64,000 nucleotides of DNA from a virus, in IMG/VR virus record IMGVR_UViG_3300035698_007281, positions 1-64,000 of that record, one strand, 5' to 3'. Positions 1 through 27,671 of the stretch are shown one piece after another. A program made the translations under genes and the position numbers. Below the pieces are notes generated by a model. The model did no database searches and was not told where the DNA came from. It worked only from the letters and a program-made list of their open reading frames with translations. Every line of letters starts with the position of its first letter. The stretch's first letter is position 1.

Positions 1-4
1 CCTA

Positions 5-1378
5 ATGGCTTATGCTGACTTCGTCATTACGAAAGGATCGGCGGCTTCCGATGTGAATGGCGGTGGTCCCAATCTCGGGGTCAATGATGGTCCCGTTGAC
101 GCTAGCAATGACTGCACTTCCGATGGAGCCGGTACTTCCATTACAGACAATAACGCTGGAGGCTGGGCAACTGCATCGGTAGACGATTGGATCTGCTTCG
201 ACACGGCGGGGACCAAGGACTTCGCCCGCATCACGAACATCACAGGAGAAGTGCTGACTGTCACGCCTGCGGTTGCATTGGGCGCTGCTAATAAGAACGT
301 CAACGTCGGCGGGGCGTGGTCTACGTGGCAGCATGGGATAGAGGATACGATTACGACCGGATTTGTGAATAGCGCCGCCGATCCCCCGCGAATCAACATC
401 AAGTACAGCGCAACGGCGTGGTCGGATAATTCGATCATGCCGCCCGCTATGTCAGTCGATATTCCCTTGATGATCGAGGGGTACGAAACAACCTTTGGTG
501 ACGGATGCCCCAACGGGAATCGACCCAAGAACGTCGCAACGACCTCTAATTGTATCGTTATCTCGTCCGTTGGGTCCGCTCGATACCTAACAGTTAAGAA
601 TCTGTATATCGAGAGAACCAGCGGGAACGGTATCTACCTATACGGCCCGGACTACCTCAACTTCTCCAACATCTATATCAAGGTCAGCACGGGGACGGGC
701 GTACACGGTCAAGGGCGGACCGGCAATTATTGGGAGGGTTGCTATGTCGAAAAGAGTGGGGATGGGCCATGTTGGACGCTGATTTATGGCGGACAATTTG
801 CGTGCGTCGATTGTGTCGCGAAGGGCGGAACGAACGGTTGGGTTGTGGATGCGGGCGAAGATTTGTCGTTGATCGGATGCATTGGGTACGGTCAATCGGG
901 CGACATCGTTTACTACAACAACTTTGCGGGCATTGTCAAGAATTGCGTCTTTCACGGGTCCACTGGTGGAAGCGGTATTCGTTACGTGGACAACACAGCG
1001 GGAGTTGTGTCAAACTGCATATTCTACGATAACAACCAATATGGGATCGAATGCGACGGCCCAGGAAACCTCGTCCTACGCAACAACGCATACGGAGCGA
1101 ACGGAGTAGCGGCTACCAAGAACGCGCCTAGCGCGGTTGGGACAGCGACTCTGACCGGCGACCCGTTTACTAATGCAGCGAGCGGTGACTTCTCTCTGAA
1201 CGATACAGCGGGCGCGGGGGCAGCTTGTCGAGCGGCTGGTTTCCCTGGTGCGTTGATTCATGGCGGCACGGGCTTCCTCGACATCGGTGCATTGCAACAT
1301 GAAGATGCTGGTGGCGGTGGTGGGGGTGGTAATGGATTTACTGGCATAGGTTCAAAACTCCTCGGGAGAACTGGCTAA
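5..1378 (+). CDS. Right-handed parallel beta-helix (pectin lyase-like) virion accessory or receptor-binding protein
   Basis: 457 aa with repeated beta-helix turns (GIYLYG, VKNCVF, VSNCIFYDNNQYGI), C-terminal GDPF..AASGDFSL and DIGALQ motifs; sits in the structural module. Confidence 0.65.
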   Translation: MAYADFVITKGSAASDVNGGGPNLGVNDGPVDASNDCTSDGAGTSITDNNAGGWATASVDDWICFDTAGTKDFARITNITGEVLTVTPAVALGAANKNVNVGGAWSTWQHGIEDTITTGFVNSAADPPRINIKYSATAWSDNSIMPPAMSVDIPLMIEGYETTFGDGCPNGNRPKNVATTSNCIVISSVGSARYLTVKNLYIERTSGNGIYLYGPDYLNFSNIYIKVSTGTGVHGQGRTGNYWEGCYVEKSGDGPCWTLIYGGQFACVDCVAKGGTNGWVVDAGEDLSLIGCIGYGQSGDIVYYNNFAGIVKNCVFHGSTGGSGIRYVDNTAGVVSNCIFYDNNQYGIECDGPGNLVLRNNAYGANGVAATKNAPSAVGTATLTGDPFTNAASGDFSLNDTAGAGAACRAAGFPGALIHGGTGFLDIGALQHEDAGGGGGGGNGFTGIGSKLLGRTG

Positions 1379-4300
1379 TGTGGACGAAACCAGGACGAGC
1401 GGAAGGTGGGAGGTTCACTACCACGAACTCCGATGGCGCTCTTGTCGCCGCCGACGCTACCCCCACCGGGGTTGTGTTTTTCGATGGCGTCTCCGATACA
1501 TCCACGGTCACAATTACCAGTGACGCCGTTGGGAAGTACGCCTGGGCCGTCACCGTCTCTGATGTCGCCATCCCTGGAACAAGGGCCGAGATTGAACTCA
1601 GAGCCACCATTGTTTCCATCTCGACCGCCGATGTGATCGAGATCGGCCGGGTGGTTCCGGCGGATCGGTGGAACTCCTCAATGAGCGACACCGACGCCTG
1701 GGATGTAAACGTTACCCACATCTCTGACTTCCTTCAGTCCGCCGGGGATGTGGTCTCCGATGCTCTAGGAGCCTGGGCCGCCGCCTCGGCCGGGGCCGCG
1801 CCCACCAGTGATGCCAACGCGGTCGCCGTCTGGGCCAGCGCTTCCAGGACCATCACCACACCCGCCTCAGACTTCATGGCCACCGGATTCAGTGTTCACT
1901 CGGCCGCCGATGTTTGGACGGCGGGGTCCAGGGAACTCAGTACTCCCGCCAATTACAAGGCAACTGGATTTTCGACCCACGCCGCCGCCGACGTGTGGAC
2001 TTCGGGAACGCGAACCCTGACGACCCCGGCCTCCGACTTCATGGCCACCGGATTTGTCTTGGCCAGCAAGATGCCCCCGGCGTGGTCGGATCTCAACATT
2101 GTGGACGGGGTGATCGACGCCAACACAGTACAGATCTCCTCGGACGCCGGGGCGGCCGATGCCCTGGAGTCTCAGTACGACACGACCGGCCTTAACGGCC
2201 CGACCTACCCCGCCCCCCAGTCTCAGATCACCGGGATCGCCAACGTAGGCGCGGCCTCCAATGTTCCGGTCATCGCGGCCCCGAACGGGTTTGTGATCAC
2301 CACGGGAACGGGCGAGGTCAATGACGAAGACGCGACCAAGTCGCCGGACGGAACCCTCCACCAGATCAGCGATGATGGCGGGACTTTGGATGTCTACTAT
2401 CTGATCGACATCGAGGGCGATGGCGTCCCGGTTTCCGTCACGTTCCTGGGCCGGGCCAACGGCCTGAACGATGACCTGACCATCTGGGTCAACACGGGGA
2501 CGATTGCCTCGCCGACGTGGGAACAACGGGACACCTTGACCGGGATCCCCCAGTCAGTCAATACCCCCAAAACTGTCACCGTGTACACTACCGATGGCAT
2601 GACCGGGGCTGACGCCGGGAAGGTCGCCCTCCGATTCTACGGGACCGGGTTGAACTCGGCCACCTTGTCCATCGATCACATGTTCGGGAGTAAGACGAGC
2701 AAAGCGGACAACACCGGCTACCAACTAGGAGCGATCTGGATTGACGAGGACTCCGGCAACACAAACACGGTCGCGGACGTGGACGGAACTGCAAGGAACC
2801 CTTGCACCTGGGTGGCCGGGCAAACCCTGAACGGATCTCTCGGTTTCAACAAGTTCCGTATCGCCAACGGGAACACAATCGTCCCGTCGGATTCCCTGAC
2901 GAACTTCACCTTGGAGGGGCAAAACTGGACCCTCCAGTTGAACGGTCAGGTCATCACAGGCCTCCACACCCAGGGCGCGAACGTCTTCGGCACGGCCACG
3001 GCCACGGATGAACCTGGGTGGCATGATTGCAGTTTTGGCGTGGGTACTTATCCCCCTGGCGAGTGGAGGGATTGTGGGTTCGGTGTCAGTGACGGCCTAT
3101 TCACTGGAGGCCAGGACGGCAACTACACTTTCATCAACCCCGTTTCCCTGGTCCCCGATCCGGGGACTCCGGACTTCACCTGGGCCGGGCGGGGAACAAC
3201 TGGCATCAACTACCGGGGAGGTCATGGTGGGTTCGCGGGAACGTTGTCTTCGGATTGCACCGTTACCGTGGAAACGGATGGCGGGGGTGGCCAGACATTC
3301 AACACCAACGGGGCGAGCGTGGAACTTCGGGGGATCTTCCGAGAGGCTACGTTCAATTGTTCCGGTGCGGGTACGATCCAACAGGTCGGTGTTTGTGGAC
3401 CGATCACCATCACCGGCACGGCCACCACGGCGGTCAAACTTTACGGAGTCTCCTCCGAGGTGACCGACACCAGTACCGGGACCGCCGTATCCGATTACAC
3501 CGTCTCCCGATCCAACGTTCAGAGCGATGTTTGGACCAACACGGATCGGACCTTGACGACTCCCCTCAGTGATTTCCACGCCGTTCCGTCGGATACCTGG
3601 GCCGCCTCCTCCAGGACCTTGACCACAGAGGCCAGCGACTACTGGGTCCCGCCGTCTGATGTCTGGGCCGCCAGTGGACGCGCTTTGTCCACCCCCTCCG
3701 ACTACTACGGGATCCAGGGATCGGACGCCACAATCGCCGGTGTGTGGGCCTATGTTTCCCGGACCCTGACGACCCCGGCCAGTGACTTCAAGGCCACCGG
3801 GTTCAGCGTTCACTCGGCCGCTGATGTTTGGTCTTCGGGAACACGAACCCTGACCACACCGGCCAGTGACTTCAAGGCCACGGTCCCGACCTCGGACGCC
3901 AACGCGGTCGCCGTCTGGGCCAGCGCTTCCAGGACCTTGACGACCCCGGTCTCGGACTTCCACGCCCCGGCCTCCGATGTCTGGGCCGCCAGTGGCCGGT
4001 TGATTGAGAACCCGTCCAGCGATTACATGGCCACCGGGTTCAGTGTTCACTCGGCCGCCGATGTTTGGACGGCGGGGTCCAGAGCGTTGAGTGTCCCCTC
4101 CGACTACTATGGGGCATCGTCTGACGCCAACGCCACCGCCGTCTGGGTAAGTGGGACTCGGACCCTGACGACCCCGGCCTCCGACTTCATGTCCACCGGG
4201 TTCTCGACCCACGCGGCCTCTGATGTCTGGGCCTCCACCACCAGATCCTTGACGACCCCGGCCTCCGATTTCCAAGCCACGGTCCCGACCTCCGACGCCA

Positions 4301-4506
4301 TCGCCCAGGCCGTTCTGATCACCTCGGTCAGCGATGTCGTTGGCAGCCTGACCCCCCACAGTCTGGGCGTCTTGGTCCTGGGTGGTCTGGAGTCGTCCAG
4401 GAGTGGCCTGACGTGGACGATCTACCAAACGGACGGGGTCACCCCTCTGTTCACCAAGACCCTCACCAGTGATTCCACCGCCGTCCCGGTCACGGGGGTG
4501 ACTTAA
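1378..4506 (+). CDS. Large repeat-containing virion protein (VW..R.LTTPASDF repeats flanking a central beta-rich domain)
   Basis: 1042 aa, TAATG-coupled to the upstream gene; T/S/A/G-rich; about 38 SD dipeptides by hand count. Confidence 0.7.
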   Translation: MWTKPGRAEGGRFTTTNSDGALVAADATPTGVVFFDGVSDTSTVTITSDAVGKYAWAVTVSDVAIPGTRAEIELRATIVSISTADVIEIGRVVPADRWNSSMSDTDAWDVNVTHISDFLQSAGDVVSDALGAWAAASAGAAPTSDANAVAVWASASRTITTPASDFMATGFSVHSAADVWTAGSRELSTPANYKATGFSTHAAADVWTSGTRTLTTPASDFMATGFVLASKMPPAWSDLNIVDGVIDANTVQISSDAGAADALESQYDTTGLNGPTYPAPQSQITGIANVGAASNVPVIAAPNGFVITTGTGEVNDEDATKSPDGTLHQISDDGGTLDVYYLIDIEGDGVPVSVTFLGRANGLNDDLTIWVNTGTIASPTWEQRDTLTGIPQSVNTPKTVTVYTTDGMTGADAGKVALRFYGTGLNSATLSIDHMFGSKTSKADNTGYQLGAIWIDEDSGNTNTVADVDGTARNPCTWVAGQTLNGSLGFNKFRIANGNTIVPSDSLTNFTLEGQNWTLQLNGQVITGLHTQGANVFGTATATDEPGWHDCSFGVGTYPPGEWRDCGFGVSDGLFTGGQDGNYTFINPVSLVPDPGTPDFTWAGRGTTGINYRGGHGGFAGTLSSDCTVTVETDGGGGQTFNTNGASVELRGIFREATFNCSGAGTIQQVGVCGPITITGTATTAVKLYGVSSEVTDTSTGTAVSDYTVSRSNVQSDVWTNTDRTLTTPLSDFHAVPSDTWAASSRTLTTEASDYWVPPSDVWAASGRALSTPSDYYGIQGSDATIAGVWAYVSRTLTTPASDFKATGFSVHSAADVWSSGTRTLTTPASDFKATVPTSDANAVAVWASASRTLTTPVSDFHAPASDVWAASGRLIENPSSDYMATGFSVHSAADVWTAGSRALSVPSDYYGASSDANATAVWVSGTRTLTTPASDFMSTGFSTHAASDVWASTTRSLTTPASDFQATVPTSDAIAQAVLITSVSDVVGSLTPHSLGVLVLGGLESSRSGLTWTIYQTDGVTPLFTKTLTSDSTAVPVTGVT
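1801..2055 (+). repeat. N-terminal block of intragenic repeats (VW..G/S.R.L.TP.SDF)
   Basis: DNA nearly identical to copies near 3895-3940 and 4028-4082. Confidence 0.85.
3523..4308 (+). repeat. C-terminal block of about 10 intragenic repeats (VW...R.LTTP.SD[FY])
   Basis: Visible in both protein and DNA. Confidence 0.85.
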
Positions 4507-4757
4507 TGTCTTACCTCGGTGGACCTATTGGGTGGATCATTCTTCCTCTGGGTGGGTTCACCATACCGTCTCATGTTGTTCCTACCATGTCCATCGGGAT
4601 GACCGTGGGACGGTGGGCCACAGCGGGATCGGCGAAGCGGTGTCCCACGTCTGGATCGTCCAGACGTGGGGGTACGACAGGCACGGCCGGGCGCGGGGGT
4701 ACGTCCGGAAGCGTGGGCCGGAAGGGCTTTACAGTGACCGTTTCGGTCGAGGAGTAG
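4506..4757 (+). CDS. Small hypothetical virion-module protein
   Basis: 83 aa, TAATG-coupled; G/T/S/R quasi-repeats. Confidence 0.55.
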   Translation: MSYLGGPIGWIILPLGGFTIPSHVVPTMSIGMTVGRWATAGSAKRCPTSGSSRRGGTTGTAGRGGTSGSVGRKGFTVTVSVEE

Positions 4758-4760
4758 ATC

Positions 4761-5123
4761 ATGAGTGTGGATTTGCAGATCAAGAAAGGTGACACGCGGG
4801 ACTGGTCATTCACTCTGAGTGACTCCAGCGGAGACGCCGTGGATCTCACGAGCGCCAGGGTGTGGTTCCGCTTGAAAGCCTCGGAGTGGGCCTCCTCCAC
4901 CTACTTCGACCGGGACACAGGTGGATCCGGGAATGACTCGGACATCACGGTTGGTACACCGGCCTCGGATGGTGGGGTGACCATCACACCTTCGGCCTCG
5001 GACTGGACCGAGATCAGCGACAATTACGGTATCTACGTCGGGGAGTTCAAGGTCTCCGACGCGAACCAGGACGTGTTCTTCACGAAGGATGTGACGGTTG
5101 ACATCCAGGAGGCGTTGTTCTAA
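4761..5123 (+). CDS. BppU N-terminal-like Ig-fold structural protein
   Basis: IKKGDT..W.FTL.D..G.AVDLT.A.V.F pattern; GAGGAG RBS. Confidence 0.6.
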   Translation: MSVDLQIKKGDTRDWSFTLSDSSGDAVDLTSARVWFRLKASEWASSTYFDRDTGGSGNDSDITVGTPASDGGVTITPSASDWTEISDNYGIYVGEFKVSDANQDVFFTKDVTVDIQEALF

Positions 5124-5989
5124 TGGCCCTAGACTCAACCAAAACTCTGGCCCAACTCGCGGAGGTGAAACGATACCTCCAGATCCCGGAGTCCGACACT
5201 TCCGACGACCGCCTGATCGACGAACTGATCACCGTGGCCTCCCAGGTGATCCGGAACGATGTGGGATGTGACATCGTCCAGGCCACCTACACCAACGAGG
5301 CCCACGATGGGGATGGTGGGTGTCATCTCTTCCTGGACAACTGGCCCCTGGTCGGGGTGGACAATCTATCGGTGGGCTTCGCGGCCTCATGCACGGTCAC
5401 GTACACAGGTACAGGCACACACGCGACTGTGGAGGTCCGGAGCGACCGTGTACGCCTCCGACACGCCGAGGTCGGTGTCTGGACCGCCACCGAGTTCCTC
5501 TTCTCGTCCTACGCAACCCTGACCCTCCTGGCCGCCGCTATCGAGGCCGTCAGTGGATGGGGGACCAGCGTGGTCTCCGGATACGGGAACTATCCGGTGA
5601 CCGAGGTCCTGGCCAGACCGGCCAGAAGCGCCTTGAACCGGGCCGTGGATTTTGAAGTCCCTGACGAGTGTGAGACCGAGTACGAGATCTTCAACTCACC
5701 GAAGGCGGTCGTCTTTTCATCCTATGGGTTCACCGGGGGGACCAAGAACGTCTTCGTCACTTACACGGCCGGGTACTTGCGGAGCGAGATCCCTGAACCC
5801 CTTCGGTCGGCGTGTTCGGAACTCACCGCCCTGGTCTTCCGCCAAGCCAAGCGGGATATGACGATGTTGGAGGAGGATATCGGCGACTACCGGTACAAGG
5901 CCGTGGCGTCCGTCAAGGCCGTCTACGAGACTTCGATGTTGCCCCTGAAGACTCAACCCTATTCCCGGCCCATGATTTACGGAGCGTGA
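5123..5989 (+). CDS. Head-tail connector/adaptor (gp6/gp15-like) with an internal insertion
   Basis: LAEVKRYLQI...DDRLIDELITVAS at the N-terminus; VTYTAGY...IPEPLRSAC and E.IGDY.Y at the C-terminus. Confidence 0.8.
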   Translation: MALDSTKTLAQLAEVKRYLQIPESDTSDDRLIDELITVASQVIRNDVGCDIVQATYTNEAHDGDGGCHLFLDNWPLVGVDNLSVGFAASCTVTYTGTGTHATVEVRSDRVRLRHAEVGVWTATEFLFSSYATLTLLAAAIEAVSGWGTSVVSGYGNYPVTEVLARPARSALNRAVDFEVPDECETEYEIFNSPKAVVFSSYGFTGGTKNVFVTYTAGYLRSEIPEPLRSACSELTALVFRQAKRDMTMLEEDIGDYRYKAVASVKAVYETSMLPLKTQPYSRPMIYGA

Positions 5990-5992
5990 TCC

Positions 5993-6343
5993 ATGAGCGT
6001 CCGATCTCTATGCAACAAGACGGCTACGGTGAACTCGAAGACCCGGTCCGTCCGGAACGAGTACGGTGGTTGGGTTGAGACCGACACCGCCAAGTTCACG
6101 GATATGCCGATTCGGATTGCGCCCATTAAGGGTGATGAACACCGCCTATACAACATGGAACGGACTGTGGTGACCAACAAAGGTTTCGTTCCTCTCGACG
6201 GGACCGACTACTCCACGATTTCTAGGGATGATGAAATTGTGGTTGACGGGATCACCTACGAGATCCACGTCGTGCGAAACATCGACTTGATGGGGTCCCA
6301 CTTGGAGATCATGCTCCGACAGGTGGATCCCGAGGTGACTTGA
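5993..6343 (+). CDS. Head closure protein (SPP1 gp16-like)
   Basis: NEYGGW, DEIVVDGITYEI..V.N.D...SHLEI; synteny. Confidence 0.75.
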   Translation: MSVRSLCNKTATVNSKTRSVRNEYGGWVETDTAKFTDMPIRIAPIKGDEHRLYNMERTVVTNKGFVPLDGTDYSTISRDDEIVVDGITYEIHVVRNIDLMGSHLEIMLRQVDPEVT

Positions 6344-6344
6344 T

Positions 6345-6791
6345 ATGCCTTATGTGTGGTACGGAAAAAAGGTGAAATGGGAGATCCTCGATTGGACCAG
6401 GAAACGTTTGATTGAGGCGGCTTTCCTGTATGAACAGACCATCAAACTCTCCATGAAGAAGGGAGGCCGGACAGAATCCGGCTTTGCGCGGCCCCGCCGG
6501 GGGACTAAACGAACCATGGAGGATCCCCTTTCCGGGAAGAAGGTCGGGAAGATTAACTCCCACCGGTCCAAGCCGGGAGAGGTTCCTCGTGTCCAGACAG
6601 GCCGTCTTCGGCGGTCGATCACAACGTGGTTTCACCCTAAACTCCCGATTGCTAGGGTGGGAACTAATGTGAAGTATGCGAAACCCTTGGAACTGGGAAC
6701 CCGGCGAATGAAACCCAGGCCCTTCATGCGTCCGGCTCTGATGAAAGTGAAAGGTAAGATCGTGGCCATGTTTGCCAAGGGAAAAAAGTAA
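6345..6791 (+). CDS. HK97 gp10-like tail completion protein
   Basis: S.PGE.P.V.TG.LRRSI, VGTNVKYA..LE.GT.RM.PRPFMRPA. Confidence 0.85.
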   Translation: MPYVWYGKKVKWEILDWTRKRLIEAAFLYEQTIKLSMKKGGRTESGFARPRRGTKRTMEDPLSGKKVGKINSHRSKPGEVPRVQTGRLRRSITTWFHPKLPIARVGTNVKYAKPLELGTRRMKPRPFMRPALMKVKGKIVAMFAKGKK

Positions 6792-6831
6792 AGTTTGGAT
6801 CTCCCCAGGCCGATTACTTGGATAGGAAAAC

Positions 6832-7239
6832 ATGCTTCAACAGATACTGAAGATCATCCCGGCAACGATCAACGCCGACAGTGACTTGTCGGCCACACTG
6901 TCGTCTGATGTCTACTTCGACGAGGTTCCCCCGGACGGAACGGTGGGGATGCCCTATATCACGTATCACGTTGTGGGTGGGCCTTCCCCGATGATGGTGT
7001 TCGACCCGAACACGTCGTGGGATGAAGTCCTGGTCCAGGTCTCGATCTTCGAGGATACGCTACACAATCCGGCGGCCATCGAGATCATCGCCAGTGATGT
7101 TGATCTTCTCTTCCACCGCCAGATTTTGTCGTTTGATGGCGCAACCCACGTCGGTTGTGTCCGTTCAGGTGGGACCGGCCCGACCCGCCTGGATGATTGT
7201 TGGCAACGGACCATTGATTACACCATCGAACTTCTCTAG
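6832..7239 (+). CDS. Tail terminator (DUF3168-like)
   Basis: VYFDEVP....PYITY..V...VQVSIF; synteny. Confidence 0.75.
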   Translation: MLQQILKIIPATINADSDLSATLSSDVYFDEVPPDGTVGMPYITYHVVGGPSPMMVFDPNTSWDEVLVQVSIFEDTLHNPAAIEIIASDVDLLFHRQILSFDGATHVGCVRSGGTGPTRLDDCWQRTIDYTIELL

Positions 7240-7251
7240 GAGGCGTGCAAA

Positions 7252-7632
7252 ATGGCGGCAGTAAAAGGCTATACCGGACAGGTTGACCTCGGATTGGTTG
7301 TGGACTCGGATGTGGCCTACGCCACACACTCGTGGTCACTGAACCTCTCCGCTGAAACCAACGACATTACCGACTTCACCACCACCGGGTGGCGGAAGTT
7401 CCTGGCCGGACTCAAAGGCTGGGACGGCAGCGTGGAACTCTACGTGGATTCGACCAATATGATCCAGCCCTCCGATGTCGGGAGCGAGGTCACCGGCCGG
7501 TTCTACTTTAACGCCACCAACGGCCTGTCCGGCCTGTGTTTGATCACCGGCTGGAACCCGTCGGTCGGCGTCGAGGGCGTCGAGACCCAGACCCTGAACA
7601 TCCAGGGATCGTCGGATCTGACGTACTTCTAA
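7252..7632 (+). CDS. Tail tube protein, paralogue 1
   Basis: WSL..S.ET.D.TDF...GWR.F.AGLKGW.GS; AGGAGG RBS. Confidence 0.8.
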   Translation: MAAVKGYTGQVDLGLVVDSDVAYATHSWSLNLSAETNDITDFTTTGWRKFLAGLKGWDGSVELYVDSTNMIQPSDVGSEVTGRFYFNATNGLSGLCLITGWNPSVGVEGVETQTLNIQGSSDLTYF

Positions 7633-7666
7633 ACCACTCTGGCCCCTTGACACAGGAGGTGGTCAC

Positions 7667-8296
7667 ATGACCGCGCTCAAAGGATATGTAGGGGCGTTCT
7701 ATATTGTCAGTGATGCGTCGGTCTACTCCGACATCTCGGCCGAAGCAGTAGGTACGGGAACGGGAGCGGCCACCGACTTCGCACTGGTGAACGAGAACGT
7801 CGAGGACGACCCCGATCTCCTGACCGTGGCGGTCAGTGGGGTCAGCCAACAAAGGGGCGCGGACTTCACGTTCTCGCCCGACGGCCGGATCGTATTCTCC
7901 ACGGCCCCAACCAGTGACTATCTCGTGACGGCGGACTACCGGTATTACCCCAACATGATTCAGGCCGGTGGGTTCTACAGTTGGGCCTTCGAGGTTTCCT
8001 CCGAGACCCTTGACGACACCGACTTCTCCACCACCGGATGGCGGTCGTTCTGCGCCGGTCTCAAGGGTTGGACTGGGTCGGCCGAGAGGCATTGGTCCAC
8101 CCTGGTCACGTCGGACTTCATAACCATGGTCGGCAGTAAGACCATCGTCAAGTTCTTCCTGGACGAGGGCAACGTGAAGTACTACACCGGCTGGGCGCAG
8201 GTCACGGGTGTGAACCCGTCCACCTCCGTCGAGGCCTTGGTCGAAGAACCCCTGACGCTACAGGGGACGGAGTTGATGCGAGGCGTCGGGACGTAA
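7667..8296 (+). CDS. Tail tube protein, paralogue 2, with an inserted Ig-like domain
   Basis: Same tube motifs as 7252-7632 plus an ~80-aa insert (EAVGTG.G..TDF...GRIVFSTAP...VTADY). Confidence 0.75.
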   Translation: MTALKGYVGAFYIVSDASVYSDISAEAVGTGTGAATDFALVNENVEDDPDLLTVAVSGVSQQRGADFTFSPDGRIVFSTAPTSDYLVTADYRYYPNMIQAGGFYSWAFEVSSETLDDTDFSTTGWRSFCAGLKGWTGSAERHWSTLVTSDFITMVGSKTIVKFFLDEGNVKYYTGWAQVTGVNPSTSVEALVEEPLTLQGTELMRGVGT

Positions 8297-8323
8297 CCCT
8301 GGACCTCCCAACCTTAGGAGAGG

Positions 8324-8845
8324 ATGACGATGTCGAAGACAAGCAACAACCTGGACGAGGCCCTCGGCCGTGAACTGGAAGTGGAACTCGGTGGGAACGT
8401 GTACAAGATGAGTCCCTTGACTATGGGGGACTGGAAGGACTTCCGGGGCCATGTCCGGGGTCAGCGGATCAGGGCTGCCTTGGAGGGAGTCGGTGATACC
8501 CTGGACGCCGAAGACAAGAGATCCATTGTGGTCCAGTTGTCGTCGGCGGTGATCACTGAGTTCGAGCAGGCGCAAGAGTTCCTCACTCCGGAGGGGATCT
8601 CGTACATGTTGTGGAGATCCATCCGCCGGAACCATCCGGAGGTGACATGGTCCCAGATCGAAGAGGTCGTGGCCGACGAGGATCTCGACAAGTTGATGGC
8701 CCTCCAGGAGGGCCTGAACGTGGATCTCGAAGAGGACGGTGATGAGGCGGACCCTCCGGAGGGGGAGACACCTTCCGGTGGGACTATTGCGTCTCCCTCC
8801 TCCAGTGGCACTACAAGTTCTCCCTCCAAGACATCCTCGACCTGA
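8324..8845 (+). CDS. Tail assembly chaperone (gpG-like)
   Basis: Between tube and tape measure; acidic; low-complexity tail after DPP. Confidence 0.75.
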   Translation: MTMSKTSNNLDEALGRELEVELGGNVYKMSPLTMGDWKDFRGHVRGQRIRAALEGVGDTLDAEDKRSIVVQLSSAVITEFEQAQEFLTPEGISYMLWRSIRRNHPEVTWSQIEEVVADEDLDKLMALQEGLNVDLEEDGDEADPPEGETPSGGTIASPSSSGTTSSPSKTSST

Positions 8846-9006
8846 CTCCGTCCCAGTTCAGGATCAGGTTGGGTGATGTGTTCGAGATTCTCTCACACAT
8901 GAACTCGCCCGACGGCAAAGGCCGAATCGTGAAGGAGGACCGGCGGAAGATCGCGGCCAAGATCGCGGACAAAGGAATCAGACCCCCGGTGTTCATTCCA
9001 GGCTAG
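8746..9006 (+). CDS. Tail chaperone gpT-like extension reached by -1 frameshift
   Basis: -1 frame open from 8746 to TAG 9004-9006 (FRWDYCVSLLQWHYKFSLQDILDLTPSQF...) with no start codon of its own upstream of this motif. Confidence 0.7.
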   Translation, partial: GGPSGGGDTFRWDYCVSLLQWHYKFSLQDILDLTPSQFRIRLGDVFEILSHMNSPDGKGRIVKEDRRKIAAKIADKGIRPPVFIPG

Positions 9007-9018
9007 TAGGAGTTTCCC

Positions 9019-11730
9019 ATGGCGTCGAAGTTGACCGAGTTGTATGTTCAGTTCTCGACCAAAGGACTGGCCCGTGTCCAGGGCGCGATGGGCAAACTTC
9101 ACGCCAACATGAAGACCATCAGCGCGGGGGCCGATCAGATTGGGCGACACACCAAGAGGGCGCTTATGGCCGTTGGTGGGTTCGCGGCCTTGGCCATCCG
9201 TGAGGCGGCTAAGTTCGAGGCCCAGTTGGCCGAAGTCAACACCATGTTGGACAAGGGGTCGATGCACCACCTCGCCAATTACGAGAAGGGCCTTCGTCGG
9301 TTGGCCACCACCTACGGCGAGTCCACCCAGACCCTGGCCAAGGGTCTGTACGACATTCTCTCGGCCTCGGTCGAACCGGGTAAGGCTATGCAAGTCCTGG
9401 AGGTCTCAACCAGAGCGGCCGCCGGTGGACTGACCGACACTGGTGTGGCGGCCGACGCCATCACCACCATCCTCAACGCCTACGGCATGAACGCGGCCGA
9501 GGCCGGGGACATCTCCGACAAACTCTTCGCCACCGTCAAGCGGGGTAAGATCACGTTCGGCCAGTTGGCCTCCTCCATCGGTAAGGTTGCGGCCACCGGC
9601 AACATGGCGGGTCTTAGCTTGGAGGAACTCTTGGCCTCGGTCAGTACCATCACACGCGCGGGCATCTCGGCCGATCAGGCGATGACGGCCATCCAGGGAA
9701 CTCTTCGTTCGTTCTTGAAACCCGCCACCGAGGCCAAGAAGGTCTTCAAGGAATTGTATGGACGAGAGATGAATGTTGCCACCCTGAGGGCCGAAGGCCT
9801 ACAGAAGATACTCCTCGGACTGAAGGACGCCACCGCGCAGCAAGTGGCGGCCATGTTTCCGAACATTAGAGGGTTGAAGGGCGTAGCGGCGGCCATGGGT
9901 GACGCGGCCGGGCTGGCCACGGATCTCACCATGCAAATGAACGCCGGAGGGATGGCCACCGACGCCTTCCGTAAACGGCAACAGACATTGTCCTTCCAGT
10001 TAAACCGAGTGAAACAGGGCTTCTTTGAGATCCTCCGGGCCGTGGGTAAAGCGTTGATGCCGGAGATGAGAGAGTTCTCAGACTGGATGTTGAGCCTCAC
10101 GCGCGCCATCGCCAGGAATGCGGACAAGATCGCGGCTTGGATCAAGAAGATCGTCATGGTCGGGATCAAGGTCTTGGCCGTGGTTGGGACCATCAAACTG
10201 ATCACCGCCGCCCTGGGTGTGTTGAATTCCGTCATGCAGGGATCTCCGATTGGAATCATCCTCCGGATCGCCGCCGCCGTTGCGATCTCGATGGGGGCGT
10301 GGAGCGCGTTCGACGGGATCATGGGAGACGTAAAGAAGGGAATGGATGGGTTCATTGAGTCATCCAGAACTCTGACCGACATCATGGAAGACCAGCGGGA
10401 GGCGATGGAGTCGGGACAGGCCGAGTCCCGTGGAATGGTGGATGAGTTGGAGTCCATCATCAACAGCGAGGACCGGTCCTACACCGCGCACGCGAGGGTG
10501 TCCGAGATCATTTCAGAACTCTCGATGAAGTATCCCAAGTTGGCTAGTATCTTAAGCCGGTTGACGGGGGACCAGGAGGCGCAGACGAACGCCGTCAAGG
10601 ACTACAGCAAGGCCCTCGTGGAACAACAACGGCAAGAAGCCCAGGCCCTTCGGAAGAAGGAACTGGGTCAGGCCCAGGATCAGTACACAAAAGTCCAACG
10701 GCGTCGAGGTTCTATTGACAAGGACATCGAGAAGTTCACAGCGATGGAGGTCAAGCGGCGGGCCGCAAGGACTTTGTACGCCGGGAGGGTTGCGAAACAA
10801 TCTACCTTTGGGACCAATATGGGGGATGCTTGGTCGGCCGTGGGTGGAGAGTCCGAGACCGGGAAGTACAGGAAGGCCAAGAAGGACCACATCTACGCCA
10901 AACAAAGGTTGAAGGAACTCCATGAGGAGAAGAAGAAACTTGGGAGACAAGCGGGGGAATCCCAGGGCGTCTTCGACAAGTACAACAAACAGGACGCGAT
11001 GGAGCGTGAGGCCGAGAAGTCCCGCGCGAAACGCAAGAAGGATCTGGCCACTAGGGTCTCCAAAGATACTACACGCGAGGAAGCCGAGGCAGCCAAGAAA
11101 CTCGCGGACGAGCGTGGGAAGAACAACCTAAAGGCGAACGTTGCCCTTGTCAAGTCTGAATGGAATGGTGTCGAAGACAAACACAAACGGGAACTCGGTC
11201 TGATGAAGGTCCGCCACTTCGAGGAGAAGAAGTCCGCCGAGAAGTTGAACGTGGACATGGGCATCATCAAGAAGCGTCAGGCCGTCGAGATCGCCAACCT
11301 TGAAGCGAGGACGGCCGAGGAGAACGCCAAGAAAGCGGAGCGCCTGGCGGATCACAAACAAGGTAAGTCCCGATCCTGGCGTCAGGATCTGACCAGTGGC
11401 ATCATGAAGGGTCTCCCGGAAGACATGCGCCGGAAGCTGGAGGCTGATGACTGGTGGGGGAAAATGTATGATCGGATGAGTGAAGAGGAACGAGCCAATC
11501 CGGAGATTGCGGCGGCGGCCAAGGAAGTCTACCACAGTATGGTCGAGGGGGCGGCTCCTGGTGGATCGTTCCAGGGACTGGGGGCGGTCTCGAAACAGGC
11601 GCAACAACAGGCCTTCAAACAAGACTCTACGATGGTCAAACTTTATGGACTGGCGAAGGAACAGATGGAGTTGTTCCGGAAGTGGGACAAGGAAAAGGCC
11701 GACAAGGCCGTGGCCAAACTTGGCCCCTGA
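9019..11730 (+). CDS. Tape measure protein (TP901-type core)
   Basis: 903 aa helical; LAKGLYDILSA, ISDKLFATV..G.ITF.QLA..IGKV. Confidence 0.92.
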   Translation: MASKLTELYVQFSTKGLARVQGAMGKLHANMKTISAGADQIGRHTKRALMAVGGFAALAIREAAKFEAQLAEVNTMLDKGSMHHLANYEKGLRRLATTYGESTQTLAKGLYDILSASVEPGKAMQVLEVSTRAAAGGLTDTGVAADAITTILNAYGMNAAEAGDISDKLFATVKRGKITFGQLASSIGKVAATGNMAGLSLEELLASVSTITRAGISADQAMTAIQGTLRSFLKPATEAKKVFKELYGREMNVATLRAEGLQKILLGLKDATAQQVAAMFPNIRGLKGVAAAMGDAAGLATDLTMQMNAGGMATDAFRKRQQTLSFQLNRVKQGFFEILRAVGKALMPEMREFSDWMLSLTRAIARNADKIAAWIKKIVMVGIKVLAVVGTIKLITAALGVLNSVMQGSPIGIILRIAAAVAISMGAWSAFDGIMGDVKKGMDGFIESSRTLTDIMEDQREAMESGQAESRGMVDELESIINSEDRSYTAHARVSEIISELSMKYPKLASILSRLTGDQEAQTNAVKDYSKALVEQQRQEAQALRKKELGQAQDQYTKVQRRRGSIDKDIEKFTAMEVKRRAARTLYAGRVAKQSTFGTNMGDAWSAVGGESETGKYRKAKKDHIYAKQRLKELHEEKKKLGRQAGESQGVFDKYNKQDAMEREAEKSRAKRKKDLATRVSKDTTREEAEAAKKLADERGKNNLKANVALVKSEWNGVEDKHKRELGLMKVRHFEEKKSAEKLNVDMGIIKKRQAVEIANLEARTAEENAKKAERLADHKQGKSRSWRQDLTSGIMKGLPEDMRRKLEADDWWGKMYDRMSEEERANPEIAAAAKEVYHSMVEGAAPGGSFQGLGAVSKQAQQQAFKQDSTMVKLYGLAKEQMELFRKWDKEKADKAVAKLGP

Positions 11731-11742
11731 GGAGAGTGACTT

Positions 11743-12513
11743 ATGGCAGCAGTTCTGAGTGATGCAACCAAACTATGGGACGGGTACTCCGAGGGACACA
11801 CCACCTCGGCCCAGACGATCACCGAAACGTATCGGTGCGCGTGGAGTGATCGGACTGCTATACGTTCGTCGTTCATGGGATCGTTCCACTCGGAGTTCGT
11901 TTACGATGTCTGCACTGATGTAAAGGTCAGGCCCCTGGGAGATCCGAACACGGTCGCGGGCGGTCCCAAACAAGCACTCCTCACATGCACCTACAAACCG
12001 GCGACCTTCGTGACACCGGAGGAGCGGCCGGTTGATACGGATTGGGCCAACTGGACTGAGAACTGGCAAAGCGGCGGCGAGGCCCTCCAGATGGGTAAGG
12101 GATTCAAGTGGTCCACCGCCCCGAAATCTGACCTGTCGAAGACCGGGGTCCAGGCCGTTCGGGTGTTCCCCAACGCGGCCCTCTCGATCACCGGCAAAGT
12201 GAACACCGTCTCGAAGGCTGATATCCTCTCAACCATCGGAAAAGTCAATTCGACGGCCGTGACCATCAAAGGGTACGAGTACCCCATTGGGAAACTTCTT
12301 TTTGAGGGTGCGGATCTCAACGAACAACAGCAAGCCGACGCCTCCGACGCGGCCTACAATGTGACCCTGAAGTTCTCCTACAAACACGTCTCCATCTGGA
12401 ACCAGATCTGGAGGCCGGACACCTCAAAGTGGGACGGGATCGAGGATCAGGCCGGGAACCCGATGTATTCCGAGGCGGACTTCACAGCGACCCTAGATCC
12501 TTCGACGTGGTAA
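11743..12513 (+). CDS. Distal tail / tail tip protein
   Basis: Directly after the tape measure; IGKVNS, GKLLFEGA motifs. Confidence 0.55.
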   Translation: MAAVLSDATKLWDGYSEGHTTSAQTITETYRCAWSDRTAIRSSFMGSFHSEFVYDVCTDVKVRPLGDPNTVAGGPKQALLTCTYKPATFVTPEERPVDTDWANWTENWQSGGEALQMGKGFKWSTAPKSDLSKTGVQAVRVFPNAALSITGKVNTVSKADILSTIGKVNSTAVTIKGYEYPIGKLLFEGADLNEQQQADASDAAYNVTLKFSYKHVSIWNQIWRPDTSKWDGIEDQAGNPMYSEADFTATLDPSTW

Positions 12514-12517
12514 ACCA

Positions 12518-13690
12518 ATGCCGACTCAACCAAAAAGATTGGCGGACTGGAAGTCAGGGGATCCCCTCTCGGCCGCGAGGCTGAACGAGGTCCAGCATAT
12601 TCTCCGGAGTATCCTCCGGGTATCGGCCCCCCTCCAACTACAAAGTCTCACGGGGGGCCTGTACCTGACCATGGACGAGGCCGGTGGGGGTTGGTTTGGT
12701 GAGGTTGTCGCGTCGGATCTGGTATCCACGTCGGACTACTCCGACGCGCGGTACTTCGTCAAGCCGGTGGATGCGGCCACCGATGGATCCGGCGATGATG
12801 CCATGGTTGCGGTATTCGACGCCGTCTTCCCGGCGGCGGCCGACTCTGATACCATCACGGCCACCAATATCCGAGAACTGGGGAAGGACACACATGGCCT
12901 GACCACTGGGGACAAGGTCTGGATCTTCGATGTCCCCCGCACGGGTAACGATGCACTCAACGACCATTTCTTCCTCAAGGACGTTCCCGCCGGGCGGAAG
13001 TTCGCATTGGCAAAACAGAACTGGTCCACCAGTATCTACCCCTCGGCGGGCCAGTGCCGGGTGATCCCGATGACTGATGAACAGATCCCTCCGGTCAATT
13101 CCGACGGAGAGATCACCGCCTTCATCTTCGGGCCAAGTGATACGAACAGCAGATCCTGGGGAACGCCCAACGTTGTCTCCGGGATGGTCGTGTCTTACAC
13201 CATGGACGCCAACGGGAAGGCCTGGATCGATTATCCCCCATCGGCCGTCCAGGACGGTGTGGCGGCTCGATCCCTGGAGATGTGGAACGGCCCCTCCGAT
13301 TCGATGCCCTCCGGGTGGGTGTTCTGTAATGGCCTCCTTGGGACGCCTGATATGCGGGGGCGTGTACCCGTGGGCGTGTGGAGTGACACGGGGGGAATCC
13401 CCGCCGGTCTGGCGGCCAGTGACTCGGTTGGGGAGACCGGAGATTACGCCGCGCCGATGGAGGTTGGTGGGACGCCGTTCATGAAGAACGTCTATGTGGA
13501 ACATGATCCCCACGGCCACACAACCACAACTTGTATTGCCAGCCAACAGGCCTTGGATTTTACATTCGTGTATACAATCAACGCGGCGACCGTGGCGGCC
13601 CATTCGGACTGGTACGATTTCCGGCAACCCTACACTGTGGTCGGGTTCATGATGAGATCTGATAACTCGATCACCTGGACAGGAGAGTAG
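12518..13690 (+). CDS. Tail tip/fibre protein with a tail-collar domain
   Basis: MWNG....PSGWVFCNG..GTPDMRGRVPVG and QPY.VVGFMMR collar motifs. Confidence 0.75.
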   Translation: MPTQPKRLADWKSGDPLSAARLNEVQHILRSILRVSAPLQLQSLTGGLYLTMDEAGGGWFGEVVASDLVSTSDYSDARYFVKPVDAATDGSGDDAMVAVFDAVFPAAADSDTITATNIRELGKDTHGLTTGDKVWIFDVPRTGNDALNDHFFLKDVPAGRKFALAKQNWSTSIYPSAGQCRVIPMTDEQIPPVNSDGEITAFIFGPSDTNSRSWGTPNVVSGMVVSYTMDANGKAWIDYPPSAVQDGVAARSLEMWNGPSDSMPSGWVFCNGLLGTPDMRGRVPVGVWSDTGGIPAGLAASDSVGETGDYAAPMEVGGTPFMKNVYVEHDPHGHTTTTCIASQQALDFTFVYTINAATVAAHSDWYDFRQPYTVVGFMMRSDNSITWTGE

Positions 13691-13694
13691 AACC

Positions 13695-14246
13695 TTGGGA
13701 GAGGAAAAATTCAACATCGAGAACGCGGCGGCCTTCGTCAACTGTTTCCCACGGGGCCACTGTGACCCGACGATCCCCGTGTGGTTGATCCAGGCGGGCC
13801 TCTCGGCCAAACGATTCATGACGTACTCGAAGCGGGAGTACCCCATCGAGACGTGTTACAATCTCGCCATCAAGGCGGCCATTGAGAATCCGGTCCTGAA
13901 GGATGTGGGTTGGTTCATCTTCAGCGACAACGATATGATCCTCGGCGAGGAACTTCAACCCTGGTTCTCGGCCGAGGGTGACGTGGTGGGGGTGACTTAC
14001 GATATGGGGGATCTCAACCGAACCTGGGGGAGGTCGGATTCGTTTCATTCTGGACTCTGGCGGGCGAGGCGGGATGTCCTCGAAAGGGTTCACGCGCCGT
14101 GGTTCGATACGGTCTTGACTGACGATGGGTGTGACATCGACAAATGTTGTTGTGAGTATTTCGCCCGGAAGGTTCGCGCCTACGGGTATACAATCACCCG
14201 CGCCGGTTGGGCCGGTCACGGGGTTTCAACAGGTCAGCAAACCTGA
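13695..14246 (+). CDS. GT-A fold glycosyltransferase-like protein (start uncertain, TTG)
   Basis: WFIFSDNDM DxD motif; HSGLWRARRDVL...PWF; CCCEYF where GED is usual; terminal GH. Confidence 0.6.
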   Translation: MGEEKFNIENAAAFVNCFPRGHCDPTIPVWLIQAGLSAKRFMTYSKREYPIETCYNLAIKAAIENPVLKDVGWFIFSDNDMILGEELQPWFSAEGDVVGVTYDMGDLNRTWGRSDSFHSGLWRARRDVLERVHAPWFDTVLTDDGCDIDKCCCEYFARKVRAYGYTITRAGWAGHGVSTGQQT

Positions 14247-14262
14247 CCAAGGAGATGACGCC

Positions 14263-15003
14263 ATGAAGAAGCTGACGATCCTCGCCGTTGTTCTCACAAT
14301 CCCGTTGATCGCGTTATTTGCATGTTCGGACGCCTACCCTTTCAGGCCCGTCGCGGATCAACAGGTCGTCCTGGCCTCTGAGGGGGTCCCTGTGGAACTC
14401 GCCAAGGCCGAGGCGGCCGTGGAGGGGGAGGTGTCCTTGGCGCTCGTTAAAGAGGCCAAGGAGGCCTCCAAGGCGGTCGGGAAATACGTCCGGGGCGGGG
14501 GCGACTCGAAAAACGTATGGAAGCCCAGCGAGGCCACCAAACAAGTGGCGGGCCTAGTCGTGACGGATCTCCGGAAGGCCATGGAGTTGGAGGAGGGTCC
14601 GGAGGCCTCGGCGGCCCTGGCGGCCGCGCACGAGAAGGCGGCCCAGGTCCAGGCCTGGGTGGGTTTCCCGGAGATCCCCCTAGTTCCCCTCGACCCGATC
14701 AACAAGGAAGCATTCCTCCGGGTCCAGGCCCAACCGGTCATCCCCACCGCCTCCGACCGGGTCAATGCCGGGATTGACGAGGGAATGGCCTGGGCTGATA
14801 TAGCGGCCCTGATCGCGTCCGGCTTTGGCGCGGGTGGGGCGGCCGTCGGCCTAATCTACCTCCGCAACCGGAAGCAAGTCCGGGCGGCCCAGGAAGTCCT
14901 GAAGAATGGCGTGAAGCCTCTGACCGATGAACAAGCCGACCGCCTCCTGACTCAACTGGAGGAGCGGGCGAAGGAGACAGACAATGAACCTACGAAGGCC
15001 TAA
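14263..15003 (+). CDS. Lipoprotein with a C-terminal transmembrane helix (unimolecular spanin-like topology)
   Basis: AGGAG RBS; MKKLTILAVVLTIPLIALFAC lipobox; helical middle; hydrophobic IAALIASGFGAGGAAVGLIYL near the C-terminus. Confidence 0.55.
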   Translation: MKKLTILAVVLTIPLIALFACSDAYPFRPVADQQVVLASEGVPVELAKAEAAVEGEVSLALVKEAKEASKAVGKYVRGGGDSKNVWKPSEATKQVAGLVVTDLRKAMELEEGPEASAALAAAHEKAAQVQAWVGFPEIPLVPLDPINKEAFLRVQAQPVIPTASDRVNAGIDEGMAWADIAALIASGFGAGGAAVGLIYLRNRKQVRAAQEVLKNGVKPLTDEQADRLLTQLEERAKETDNEPTKA

Positions 15004-15736
15004 ACTTTTCATTCTCGCCTTGACCGCCGTAGTGGTTCTGGGGTGCGCCGATACTGGCGCACCCCAGACCGTTGTGGTCCACGTTCCTCCCCGACAGGTC
15101 CAGGTCACCGAGTGGCCGGATCAATCGGGGGTCGTGCCTGTGTGGTGCGCTTTCCAGATCAAGGACGCCTGGGCATCCCCTATTTTTCGTGGGTCCGGGA
15201 CCGTTGTCCGGAAAGAGGGGGGTAAATGGTGGATTCTGACCTGTGAACACGTCATTTCATTCCAATCCCTGAAGTGGGTAGGGGTGACCGGTGTGAAGAT
15301 CTACTTGGGGAACGGGAAGCGGCTCTGTACGGTATTCCGTAGGGATCCCCTGTCAGACCTTGCAGTCCTGGAGATCGTTGATCCTGGGGCATCCTGGCGG
15401 CCCTACCGGGTATCCACGGAGGCCTTGGCCATGGGCCAGAAGGTCTTCTCCCTGGGGGTTGGTCTGGTTCCGCCCCTGGGGGAGGGAGATCCGCCGGTCT
15501 ATGCCACCCACACCCAACCGGGCCACGTATCCTCGGCAACGGTGGATCCACAGATCCCCACCAATTGTTCGATCAAGGGCGGCTTCTCCGGCGGCCCCCT
15601 CCTGAACACCAGGGGAGAACTGATCGGGGTCAACCGCGCGGCCAATGGGCCTGGGTATTCCTACCACATCCCGATCACCCAGGCCATGATCGTCGAGGAG
15701 GTCTGGACTACGCCAGCGCGACCTTCCGGCCCGTGA
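14984..15736 (+). CDS. Trypsin-like (S1) serine protease, lipoprotein
   Basis: VVLGC lipobox; triad motifs ILTCEHV, DLAVL, GFSGGPL. Confidence 0.85.
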   Translation: MNLRRPKLFILALTAVVVLGCADTGAPQTVVVHVPPRQVQVTEWPDQSGVVPVWCAFQIKDAWASPIFRGSGTVVRKEGGKWWILTCEHVISFQSLKWVGVTGVKIYLGNGKRLCTVFRRDPLSDLAVLEIVDPGASWRPYRVSTEALAMGQKVFSLGVGLVPPLGEGDPPVYATHTQPGHVSSATVDPQIPTNCSIKGGFSGGPLLNTRGELIGVNRAANGPGYSYHIPITQAMIVEEVWTTPARPSGP

Positions 15737-27669: not shown

Positions 27670-27671
27670 GA

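Follow-up and report, generated by a model that had tools for sequence, protein, structure and literature searches.

Why do the outer proteins of a tailed phage carry the dipeptide Ser-Asp (SD) two to five times as often as expected by chance, and which gene goes with this bias? The question is raised by the uncultured phage contig IMGVR_UViG_3300035698_007281 of the IMG/VR database (93,511 bp, with terminal repeats and rated complete), of which the window, i.e., the whole stretch of DNA analyzed here, comprises the first 64,000 nucleotides (64 kb). An earlier note on this DNA had proposed that SD marks surface proteins of the virion that are glycosylated by the phage's own enzymes. Dipeptide statistics, searches for related loci and structure models now suggest that the SD pair in outer particle proteins probably serves as a sugar-attachment tag. 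They also link the bias to one family of glycosyltransferases, whose member in this phage is encoded among the head genes outside the window (here named the head-module transferase).

Ser-Asp pairs in the particle proteins of the phage and its relatives

Recounting reproduced every hand count of SD in the earlier note exactly (Table 1). Expected numbers were derived from each protein's own composition, with 2000 within-protein shuffles for single proteins. The 1042-aa fibre-like protein contains 38 SD and only 3 DS, with 8.5 SD expected, and the 390-aa tail tip or fibre protein contains 11 SD with 2.9 expected; none of the 2000 shuffles reached either count. The proteins named as a contrast (tape measure, chaperone-position open reading frame [ORF] and terminase) proved SD-poor, and the genes at 5993 and 6345 encode no SD. 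Pooling the virion genes between positions 5 and 13690 without the 1042-aa protein gave 39 SD vs 18.0 expected (z = 5.0), the first rank among all 400 dipeptides, with 10 DS in the same pool, while the remaining, non-structural genes of the genome stayed near expectation (57 to 73 vs 67 to 75). Two small head proteins encoded outside the window are likewise SD-enriched. The major capsid protein, in which the earlier note had suggested looking for the same bias, turned out to be SD-poor.

The effect is specific for this residue pair. No enrichment of TD, SE, TE, SN or DS was detected in the virion proteins of this phage, and a general Ser/Thr-acid motif was ruled out by the values for TD, SE and TE. 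All six serine codons (TCC, TCG, AGT, TCT, AGC and TCA) occur before GAT or GAC, both Asp codons are used, and the bias thus lies at the protein level, as had been claimed; a DNA-level motif was ruled out by nine different codon pairs and by the presence of the effect at 35 to 70% GC. AGT encodes 24% of the SD serines (22/92) vs 11.5% of the other serines (40/347) in the virion genes (window 1-13690 and genome 89602-93389), a surplus that may reflect point changes by which AAT, GGT or ACT codons recently turned xD into SD.

Composition, codon bias, repeats or wrong gene calls could in principle create such an excess, and in the 1042-aa protein about 23 of 38 SDs do lie within repeats. However, the enrichment survives correction for composition and repeats, both in dipeptide statistics and in shuffles, and the part of this protein outside the repeats still holds 14 SD vs 4.1 expected (p = 1e-4). 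Together with the six serine codons, the wide GC range and the absence of the excess from non-structural genes, this led us to reject an artefact, which we regard as extremely improbable.

An alignment of four head-tail adaptors (A4) retrieved 40 IMG/VR loci, 38 of them new, of which up to 10 kb was kept on each side. All loci that encode a head-module transferase homolog showed a pooled observed/expected ratio (O/E) for SD of 1.55 to 2.74, at 35 to 60% GC; L005 and L032, two short contigs that end before the place expected for the transferase, were also enriched. Where the sequence covered the upstream 10 kb without a transferase gene, all loci fell between 0.64 and 1.29, and twenty outgroup loci without it pooled to 420 SD vs 419.5. 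The transferase-bearing clade without this genome reached 286 SD vs 157.1 (z = 10.3, again first of 400 dipeptides), and TD, SE and DS were unenriched in this pool. The expectation of the earlier note that relatives with and without a glycosyltransferase gene should differ was thereby borne out for the head-module transferase (O/E 1.5 to 2.7 with it, 1.00 without). Pooled counts for the single protein families of the clade are given in Table 1. The chaperone-position ORF and the capsid protein are depleted of SD, and depletion of the capsid protein was also found in outgroup phages (3 vs 7.9).

Conservation of the pairs follows the same division. In alignment cells within the clade, SD serines were retained in 50% and other serines in 31%, whereas in cells of outgroup orthologs the values were 11% and 22%, with D, T, G or A found instead. 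The SD serines of the tail terminator were retained in 15 of 22 in-clade cells vs 0 of 9 outgroup cells, and the 120-aa protein keeps four of its six SD sites in the L005 ortholog (55% identity).

A glycosyltransferase family and its neighbouring fibres

The earlier note had named four glycosyltransferases in the window. Three of these, at 25681, 27672 and 54709, were recovered by Pfam, and for the fourth, the ORF at 13695, only a lead from the ESM Atlas was obtained. The enzyme that tracks the SD bias is a fifth, the head-module transferase. Its AlphaFold2 (AF2) model (predicted local distance difference test [pLDDT] 85, predicted template modeling score [pTM] 0.80) shows two Rossmann-like domains in a GT-B fold and matches GT4 retaining transferases over about 330 residues (VIA Z 26-28 for MshA, BshA, sucrose-phosphate synthase, GlgM and TarM, with MshA and BshA at Z 28; Foldseek E 1e-14). 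SdgB appears among the Foldseek matches at E 1e-10 (rank 35-49). In sequence, Glyco_trans_1_4 matches with 27.5 bits vs a cut-off of 27, and a search of the PDB gave only weak matches to other GT4 enzymes. In an alignment of six sequences, the second Glu of the C-terminal E-x7-E motif (E321) is invariant, but a non-acidic residue takes the place of the first. A beta-hairpin of about 50 residues, with two long and two short strands, is inserted into the N-terminal half (residues 68-109).

An alignment of six transferases (A5) yielded 80 loci, 79 of them new, at 27 to 51% identity. The 79 new loci contain 2507 SD vs 1447 expected and 1270 DS, with a median O/E per locus of 1.70, and the effect is present from 35 to 70% GC. 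About 25 enriched loci have only the transferase in common with the phage of the window. In these, the SD excess resides in one large protein whose gene directly adjoins that of the transferase, in many cases with the stop codon of one gene overlapping the start codon of the other (for example, 53 SD in 669 aa, 59 in 529 aa, 63 in 955 aa and 22 in 350 aa). Among 30 loci with distinct transferases, each with a protein at SD p < 1e-4, the SD-rich protein was the immediate neighbour of the transferase in 23, with 4.4 expected (p = 4e-14).

The neighbouring fibres consist of runs of heptads that begin with SD, such as SDTVVFK and SDIVSLK or SDTTAIH and SDTTIIA, preceded by an N-terminal domain that resembles that of the 1042-aa protein. 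Serine precedes 51% of all their Asp residues, and 52% of the spacings from one SD to the next are multiples of 7. Database matches were limited to sub-threshold coiled-coil hits in Pfam and to PHROG 19577, annotated as 'minor head protein'. If the heptads form a coiled coil with hydrophobic residues at a and d, the serine would fall on f, the outermost position. When strongly SD-rich proteins were set aside, O/E was 0.88 and 1.10 in distant loci and 1.64 in the close clade (p = 4e-21); as no residual excess is left in the distant loci, the diffuse spread of the pairs is a feature of the clade of this phage. In a quick tree of 70 transferases, the SD-rich label was clustered, with 8 changes vs 19.6 in shuffles. 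One half of the tree is SD-rich in 28 of 30 rows, while the other half mixes SD-rich and SD-poor subclades, one of the latter with n = 9. No other enriched dipeptide was found in the SD-poor subclades.

The phage's glycosyltransferases might alternatively serve DNA modification or alteration of the host envelope, with an unrelated cause for the SD bias. The GT4, CE4, GT9 and ATP-grasp genes do lie within the replication operon, between primase and SbcCD-like genes, and T4 DNA alpha-glucosyltransferase is another match (Z 22) to the GT-B fold of the head-module transferase. On the other hand, the transferase that tracks the bias stands in the late structural operon in every lineage and is often translationally coupled to the SD-rich fibre gene, and a partial scan detected no hydroxymethylase-type gene among the genes scanned. 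We therefore judge this explanation improbable. Another modification of the serine is still less probable in our view, be it phosphorylation by an acid-directed kinase or an ester cross-link. Kinases commonly prefer a serine with an acidic residue after it, but SE and TD are unenriched, which argues against a typical acidophilic Ser/Thr kinase, and the sole enzyme gene that travels with the SD-rich proteins across lineages encodes a glycosyltransferase.

Structural motif or sugar-attachment tag

The proteins themselves allow the tag to be weighed against a structural role of the pair. The 1042-aa protein, without a match in Pfam or PHROG, consists of an SD-rich N-terminal domain (7 SD in 140 aa, all among the non-repeat pairs counted above), 3 + 10 repeats and a central domain. 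Each of the thirteen repeats (22 to 29 aa, with the pattern (S/A)D-VW-x4-R-x-L-T-T-P-A-SD-F/Y) offers two SD positions. Among 5.8 billion proteins searched, such repeats proved common in metagenomic fibre-like proteins without SD excess: P0018 has 12 repeats and 8 SD vs 8.6 expected, and P0007 reads TP-(A/N/S/T)-DY at the place of TPASDF. Among the homologs, only P0008 (45 vs 10.9) and P0015 (33 vs 12.3) are SD-enriched, and in them serine precedes the conserved Asp, whereas the repeats of the SD-poor P0007 and P0018 retain the Asp, preceded by A, V, T or N. Since these homologs keep the framework and the Asp without the Ser, the serine is not needed for the repeat fold. More broadly, W-x4-R-x-L-T and DAVWDE..H....G repeats are widespread in metagenomic fibre-like proteins (P0007, P0018, P0022 and P0023) and matched no Pfam family; P0018 is a cell-surface-type protein with dockerin-like ends. 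Further SD-poor homologs are P0004, P0005, P0006 and P0012, of which P0006 was absent from IMG/VR.

The 168-aa protein keeps all six SD sites in 20 homologs (38 to 68% identity), where they are among the most conserved columns and S51, S79, D80 and D90 are invariant. It matched nothing in Pfam or PHROG. Its model (pLDDT 81) is a jellyroll that resembles the C-terminal domain of XepA (Z 9.3), the cement protein of Bordetella phage BPP-1 (3j4u_H; VIA Z 7.3, 23% identity) and a capsid-associated chain of phage Carin1 (Z 6.7, 20% identity). Its position immediately after the capsid gene makes a role in capsid decoration most likely. In the model, the six SD pairs all lie in loops, in a short turn or at the first residue of a strand, in line with the expectation of the earlier note that SD sites occupy exposed loops.

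One homolog of the jellyroll protein is present in a metagenome-assembled genome (MAG) of Phycisphaerae. A Planctomycetaceae MAG contig (L046 / G001:C9:30000-40000), which is bacterial, carries a low-GC island (42% vs 50%) that holds only a capsid gene, an SD-rich jellyroll gene (6 SD) and an XkdF-like protease related to those of this phage. This island may represent a capsid-forming satellite that relies on a helper phage.

These data bear on the explanation that S-D is a fold-building motif (heptad positions f-g, a strand start or turn, or a helix cap) inherited with the protein families, with the transferase acting elsewhere or on other residues. It would account for distant loci in which only the fibre next to the transferase is SD-rich, for the preservation of the jellyroll sites in all 20 homologs, including one from a MAG where the transferase was not found, and for the hydrophobic residues that flank SD in the context logo, as in regular secondary structure. 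However, homologous repeats and heptads of SD-poor phages retain the Asp and not the Ser, and unrelated folds (jellyroll, tube, terminator, tip and fibre) gained SD together in one clade where outgroup orthologs have D, T, G or A. A building motif also leaves unexplained that internal and non-particle proteins escape the bias and that 23 of 30 SD-rich proteins adjoin one enzyme family. Overall, we consider this explanation unlikely.

We lean, by a narrow measure, towards the reading that the serine of S-D is O-glycosylated by the head-module transferase and that, within the clade, decoration, neck and tail proteins have come to carry the tag. The wider claim we hold to be evenly poised: that these loci represent an undescribed, widespread O-glycosylation system of uncultured tailed phages with a bare Ser-Asp tag. 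Its core would be a GT4-like transferase paired with an SD-heptad fibre, resembling a sugar-coated bottle-brush, and in one clade, to which this phage belongs, selection would have written the tag into most outward-facing virion proteins. The proposal of the earlier note, a phage-encoded pathway that glycosylates virions at an SD sequon, is favored by each computational test that it had named as a possible refutation. The key enzyme was not among the four it named, and the capsid protein is SD-poor.

In the proposed mechanism, a cytoplasmic GT-B enzyme (GT4-like, probably retaining), encoded among the head genes 6 kb upstream of the adaptor across the contig end, would read the Asp and put a sugar on the Ser of S-D before or during assembly. 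The data show the enrichment of SD, its specificity and conservation, its link to the transferase family and the fold of the enzyme; from there we infer the action on protein, the serine as its site, the identity of the sugar and the purpose of a coat (shielding or adhesion). The ancestral substrate would be the fibre of the adjoining gene with its heptads beginning in S-D. In the clade, xD-to-SD point changes would have carried the tag to the jellyroll decoration protein, the small head proteins and the 1042-aa fibre, and likewise to the tail terminator, both tube proteins, the distal tail protein and the tail tip. Internal or non-particle proteins, namely the tape measure, chaperone, head completion protein, scaffold and enzymes, would have stayed without it. 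Lineage-specific transferases and tailoring enzymes would then build on the first sugar; in this phage, the GT-A-like ORF, the GT4, GT9 and GT2 enzymes, the CE4 deacetylase and the ATP-grasp enzyme are candidate extenders. This would give the fibre a sugar coat and, in this clade, coat part of the particle as well.

Several points weigh against this reading. S-D glycosylation is a prediction from sequence and modelled folds. The fold likeness to the T4 DNA enzyme has been mentioned, and the 23205-28604 cluster may serve another purpose, e.g., act on DNA. SD bias is missing from several transferase subclades (about 20 loci), which means that the tie to SD does not hold throughout the family. 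The distant loci are SD-rich only in the neighbouring fibre and not in other proteins, and there SD could be a property of a fibre family that travels with the gene. The relatives with diffuse enrichment form one clade, which makes the association one evolutionary event. With the major capsid protein SD-poor, a full coat would depend on the decoration protein. Exposure was judged in a single SD-rich protein, the 168-aa protein, and from secondary structure only. Finally, the MAG island has no adaptor or tube, and a search of the incomplete MAG gave no transferase homolog; the SD pairs of the jellyroll may be needed for something other than glycosylation.

Two known systems share features with the proposed one. 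The staphylococcal enzymes SdgA and SdgB O-GlcNAcylate serine-aspartate repeat adhesins, and SdgB glycosylates Ser in their DSD motifs, with DSD as the minimal motif (PMC8561734, PMC3794999). As proposed for the phage, they combine a cytoplasmic GT-B enzyme with an acceptor Ser next to Asp, and their substrate is an extended surface stalk. The sdgA and sdgB genes are positioned next to sdrCDE, i.e., beside the genes of their SD-rich substrates, as is the phage transferase in the 23 loci described above. In contrast to SdgA and SdgB, whose insert is a ten-stranded DUF1975 domain, the phage enzyme has no Pfam DUF1975 hit, and it is no closer to SdgB than to many other GT4 enzymes. Moreover, the phage SD pairs are isolated or spaced 7, 10, 11 or 14 residues apart, without (SD)n runs, and the system is phage-encoded, with virion proteins as targets.

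In mycobacteriophages, the phages' own glycosyltransferases modify capsid-associated and tail tube proteins (Freeman et al. 2023, as cited in PMC12363180). Che8, Corndog and Myrna are the examples, and their glycans reportedly shield the particle. Phage-encoded glycosyltransferases (here GT4, GT9, GT2, the head-module GT-B enzyme and the GT-A-like lead) are the common element. The present phage differs in its untagged capsid protein, in a host that is probably not an actinobacterium, and in a head-module transferase without a tblastn match at E 1e-3 in 50,697 deposited phage records. The 2023 work of Freeman et al. (Cell Host Microbe 31:1216) reportedly describes no dipeptide tag and places the sugars on C-terminal stretches. 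Our case would combine SdgB-type SD glycosylation with virion glycosylation of the mycobacteriophage type.

A further parallel is the general O-glycosylation motif of Bacteroidetes, D-(S/T)-(A/I/L/V/M/T), also a tag of two or three residues with an Asp adjoining the modified Ser and spread across many unrelated proteins. Here, however, the order is S-D and not D-S, Thr is unused, and the enzyme would be cytoplasmic and phage-encoded, not periplasmic. The heptad x-D-hydrophobic-x-x-hydrophobic-K also occurs in fibres of SPO1-like Bacillus phages (phrog_19577; gp212 of vB_BsuM-Goe3). In Goe3 gp212, S, A, T or G precede Asp in similar shares (6, 5, 5 of 24 Asp), whereas the fibres beside the transferase almost always have Ser.

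Literature searches gave no sign that an S-D tag had been described in phages before. To our knowledge, only a few mycobacteriophages have been shown to glycosylate their virions, and we know of no sequence tag for this modification. Should S-D prove to be one, metagenome sequences would allow glycosylated phage proteins to be predicted together with their sites, and the glycan coat of a particle could be read from its sequence. The gene pair of enzyme and fibre is a small two-gene system that can be tested in E. coli. Particle shielding and decoration, which matter for phage therapy and for adhesion between phage and host, could then be studied far outside the actinobacteriophages, and a two-residue tag shared by unrelated folds of one clade would clearly exemplify how a proteome adapts to a modifying enzyme.

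Gene order and accessory sugar genes

The structural module spans the contig end, with its head part at about 87 to 93 kb of the genome and the rest from window position 5 (Table 1). No close relatives among deposited phages were found for the DNA of the window, the 1042-aa protein or the transferase. The jellyroll homolog of the Phycisphaerae MAG and the Planctomycetaceae island are two weak pointers that suggest a planctomycete host.

Table 1. Features of the phage and selected relatives, with SD counts in this phage and observed vs expected SD in pools of the clade including this genome.
Feature	Coordinates (window unless noted)	Strand	SD in this phage	SD in clade pool	Remarks
Scaffold-like gene	genome 87499				
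Major capsid protein	genome 88419-89525		1 in 368 aa	1 vs 5.4 (4 orthologs)	Pfam Phage_capsid
ORFs of 168, 87, 128 and 132 aa	between capsid and head-module transferase genes		6 in 168 aa; 4 in 132 aa	168-aa protein 26 vs 5.4; 87-aa family 16 vs 5.7	
Head-module glycosyltransferase	genome 91551-92771			5 vs 5.5	Pfam Glyco_trans_1_4; outside window
140-aa ORF	after head-module transferase				
457-aa right-handed beta-helix protein	5-1378		3 (1.9 expected), not enriched		Pfam Beta_helix 2e-11, NosD
1042-aa fibre-like protein	1378-4506	+	38		
83-aa ORF	between 1042-aa and 120-aa genes				
120-aa protein	4761-5123	+	6 in 120 aa		phrog_1084 (function unknown)
Head-tail adaptor	5123-5989	+		25 vs 17.1	Weakly enriched; marker for related loci
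Head completion protein	between adaptor and tail terminator			3 vs 3.6	
Neck1-type protein	between adaptor and tail terminator			4 vs 2.9	
Tail terminator	6832-7239	+	3 in 135 aa	23 vs 7.7	
Tail tube paralog 1	7252-7632	+	3 in 126 aa	50 vs 22.6	
Tail tube paralog 2	7667-8296	+	4 in 209 aa	35 vs 15.3	
173-aa ORF at tail assembly chaperone position	8324-8845	+	0 in 173 aa	0 vs 5.2 (this phage and 5 orthologs)	Named by position only; no Pfam or PHROG match
Tape measure protein	9019-11730	+	2 in 903 aa	6 vs 4.9	
Distal tail protein	11743-12513	+	4 in 256 aa	11 vs 3.3 (with L032 ortholog)	Named by position only
Tail tip or fibre protein	12518-13690	+	11 in 390 aa		Weak PHROG tail hits
183-aa ORF, candidate small GT-A-like glycosyltransferase	13695-14246	+			Lead only; directly 3' of tail tip gene
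Trypsin-like serine peptidase	14984-15736				Trypsin_2, 1e-19; closes tail gene row
Glycan-enzyme cluster	23205-28604	-			In replication operon
Weak HAD-like	23205-23765	-			
RimK-like ATP-grasp enzyme	23713-24801	-			Pfam
308-aa ORF	24801-25727	-			No assignment; no Pfam hit at E 0.01 in two scans
GT4	25681-26667	-			Pfam; small ORF adjoins before CE4 gene
CE4 deacetylase	26929-27747	-			Pfam
GT9, heptosyltransferase-like	27672-28604	-			Glyco_transf_9, 35.5 bits vs cut-off 22
GT2-family glycosyltransferase	54709-55551	+			Pfam
Terminase	59005-60339		2 in 444 aa		Away from tail row
Portal	61907-63589				Away from tail row
Tube paralog with insert	L004:4618-5835				9 SD in 405 aa
Tube paralog with insert	L009:12415-13638				
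Tube paralog with insert	L032:1978-3222				

The ORF at 13695 had no Pfam or PHROG match; in the ESM Atlas it fell with viral clusters that include some Anp1 or Glycos_transf_2 members (TM 0.74 to 0.78). No PDB chain was matched by the sequence of the GT9 protein at E 1, with the autotransporter heptosyltransferases TibC/Aah as the model for comparison. The cluster of glycan enzymes at 23205-28604 may extend or tailor the glycan.

In other lineages, sugar genes flank the conserved transferase within the structural operon and differ from lineage to lineage. At L007:856-7921 (35% GC), genes for a GT8, a DUF4422 protein, a sulfotransferase, a radical-SAM/SPASM enzyme, a CmcI-like methyltransferase and a GT9 lie just upstream of the transferase, which suggests a sulfated, methylated glycan. 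At L011:775-9420, genes for a GDP-mannose 4,6-dehydratase, a DegT aminotransferase, three methyltransferases and a second transferase separate the conserved transferase from a 281-aa protein with 16 SD, the dehydratase and aminotransferase forming a perosamine-type pathway. By analogy, a conserved first enzyme with variable extending enzymes would fit the pattern of glycan gene clusters.

Some further features of the structural modules were observed. The gene for the beta-helix protein (5-1378) stands between that of the head-module transferase and that of the 1042-aa fibre, and its product may be a depolymerase-like spike of the head or neck. The tail tube paralogs stand in tandem, and in three relatives the second has an SD-rich insert of about 200 aa. 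At L010:1219-2058, a caspase-like peptidase (Peptidase_C14, 5e-21) is encoded just upstream of the transferase in the structural module.

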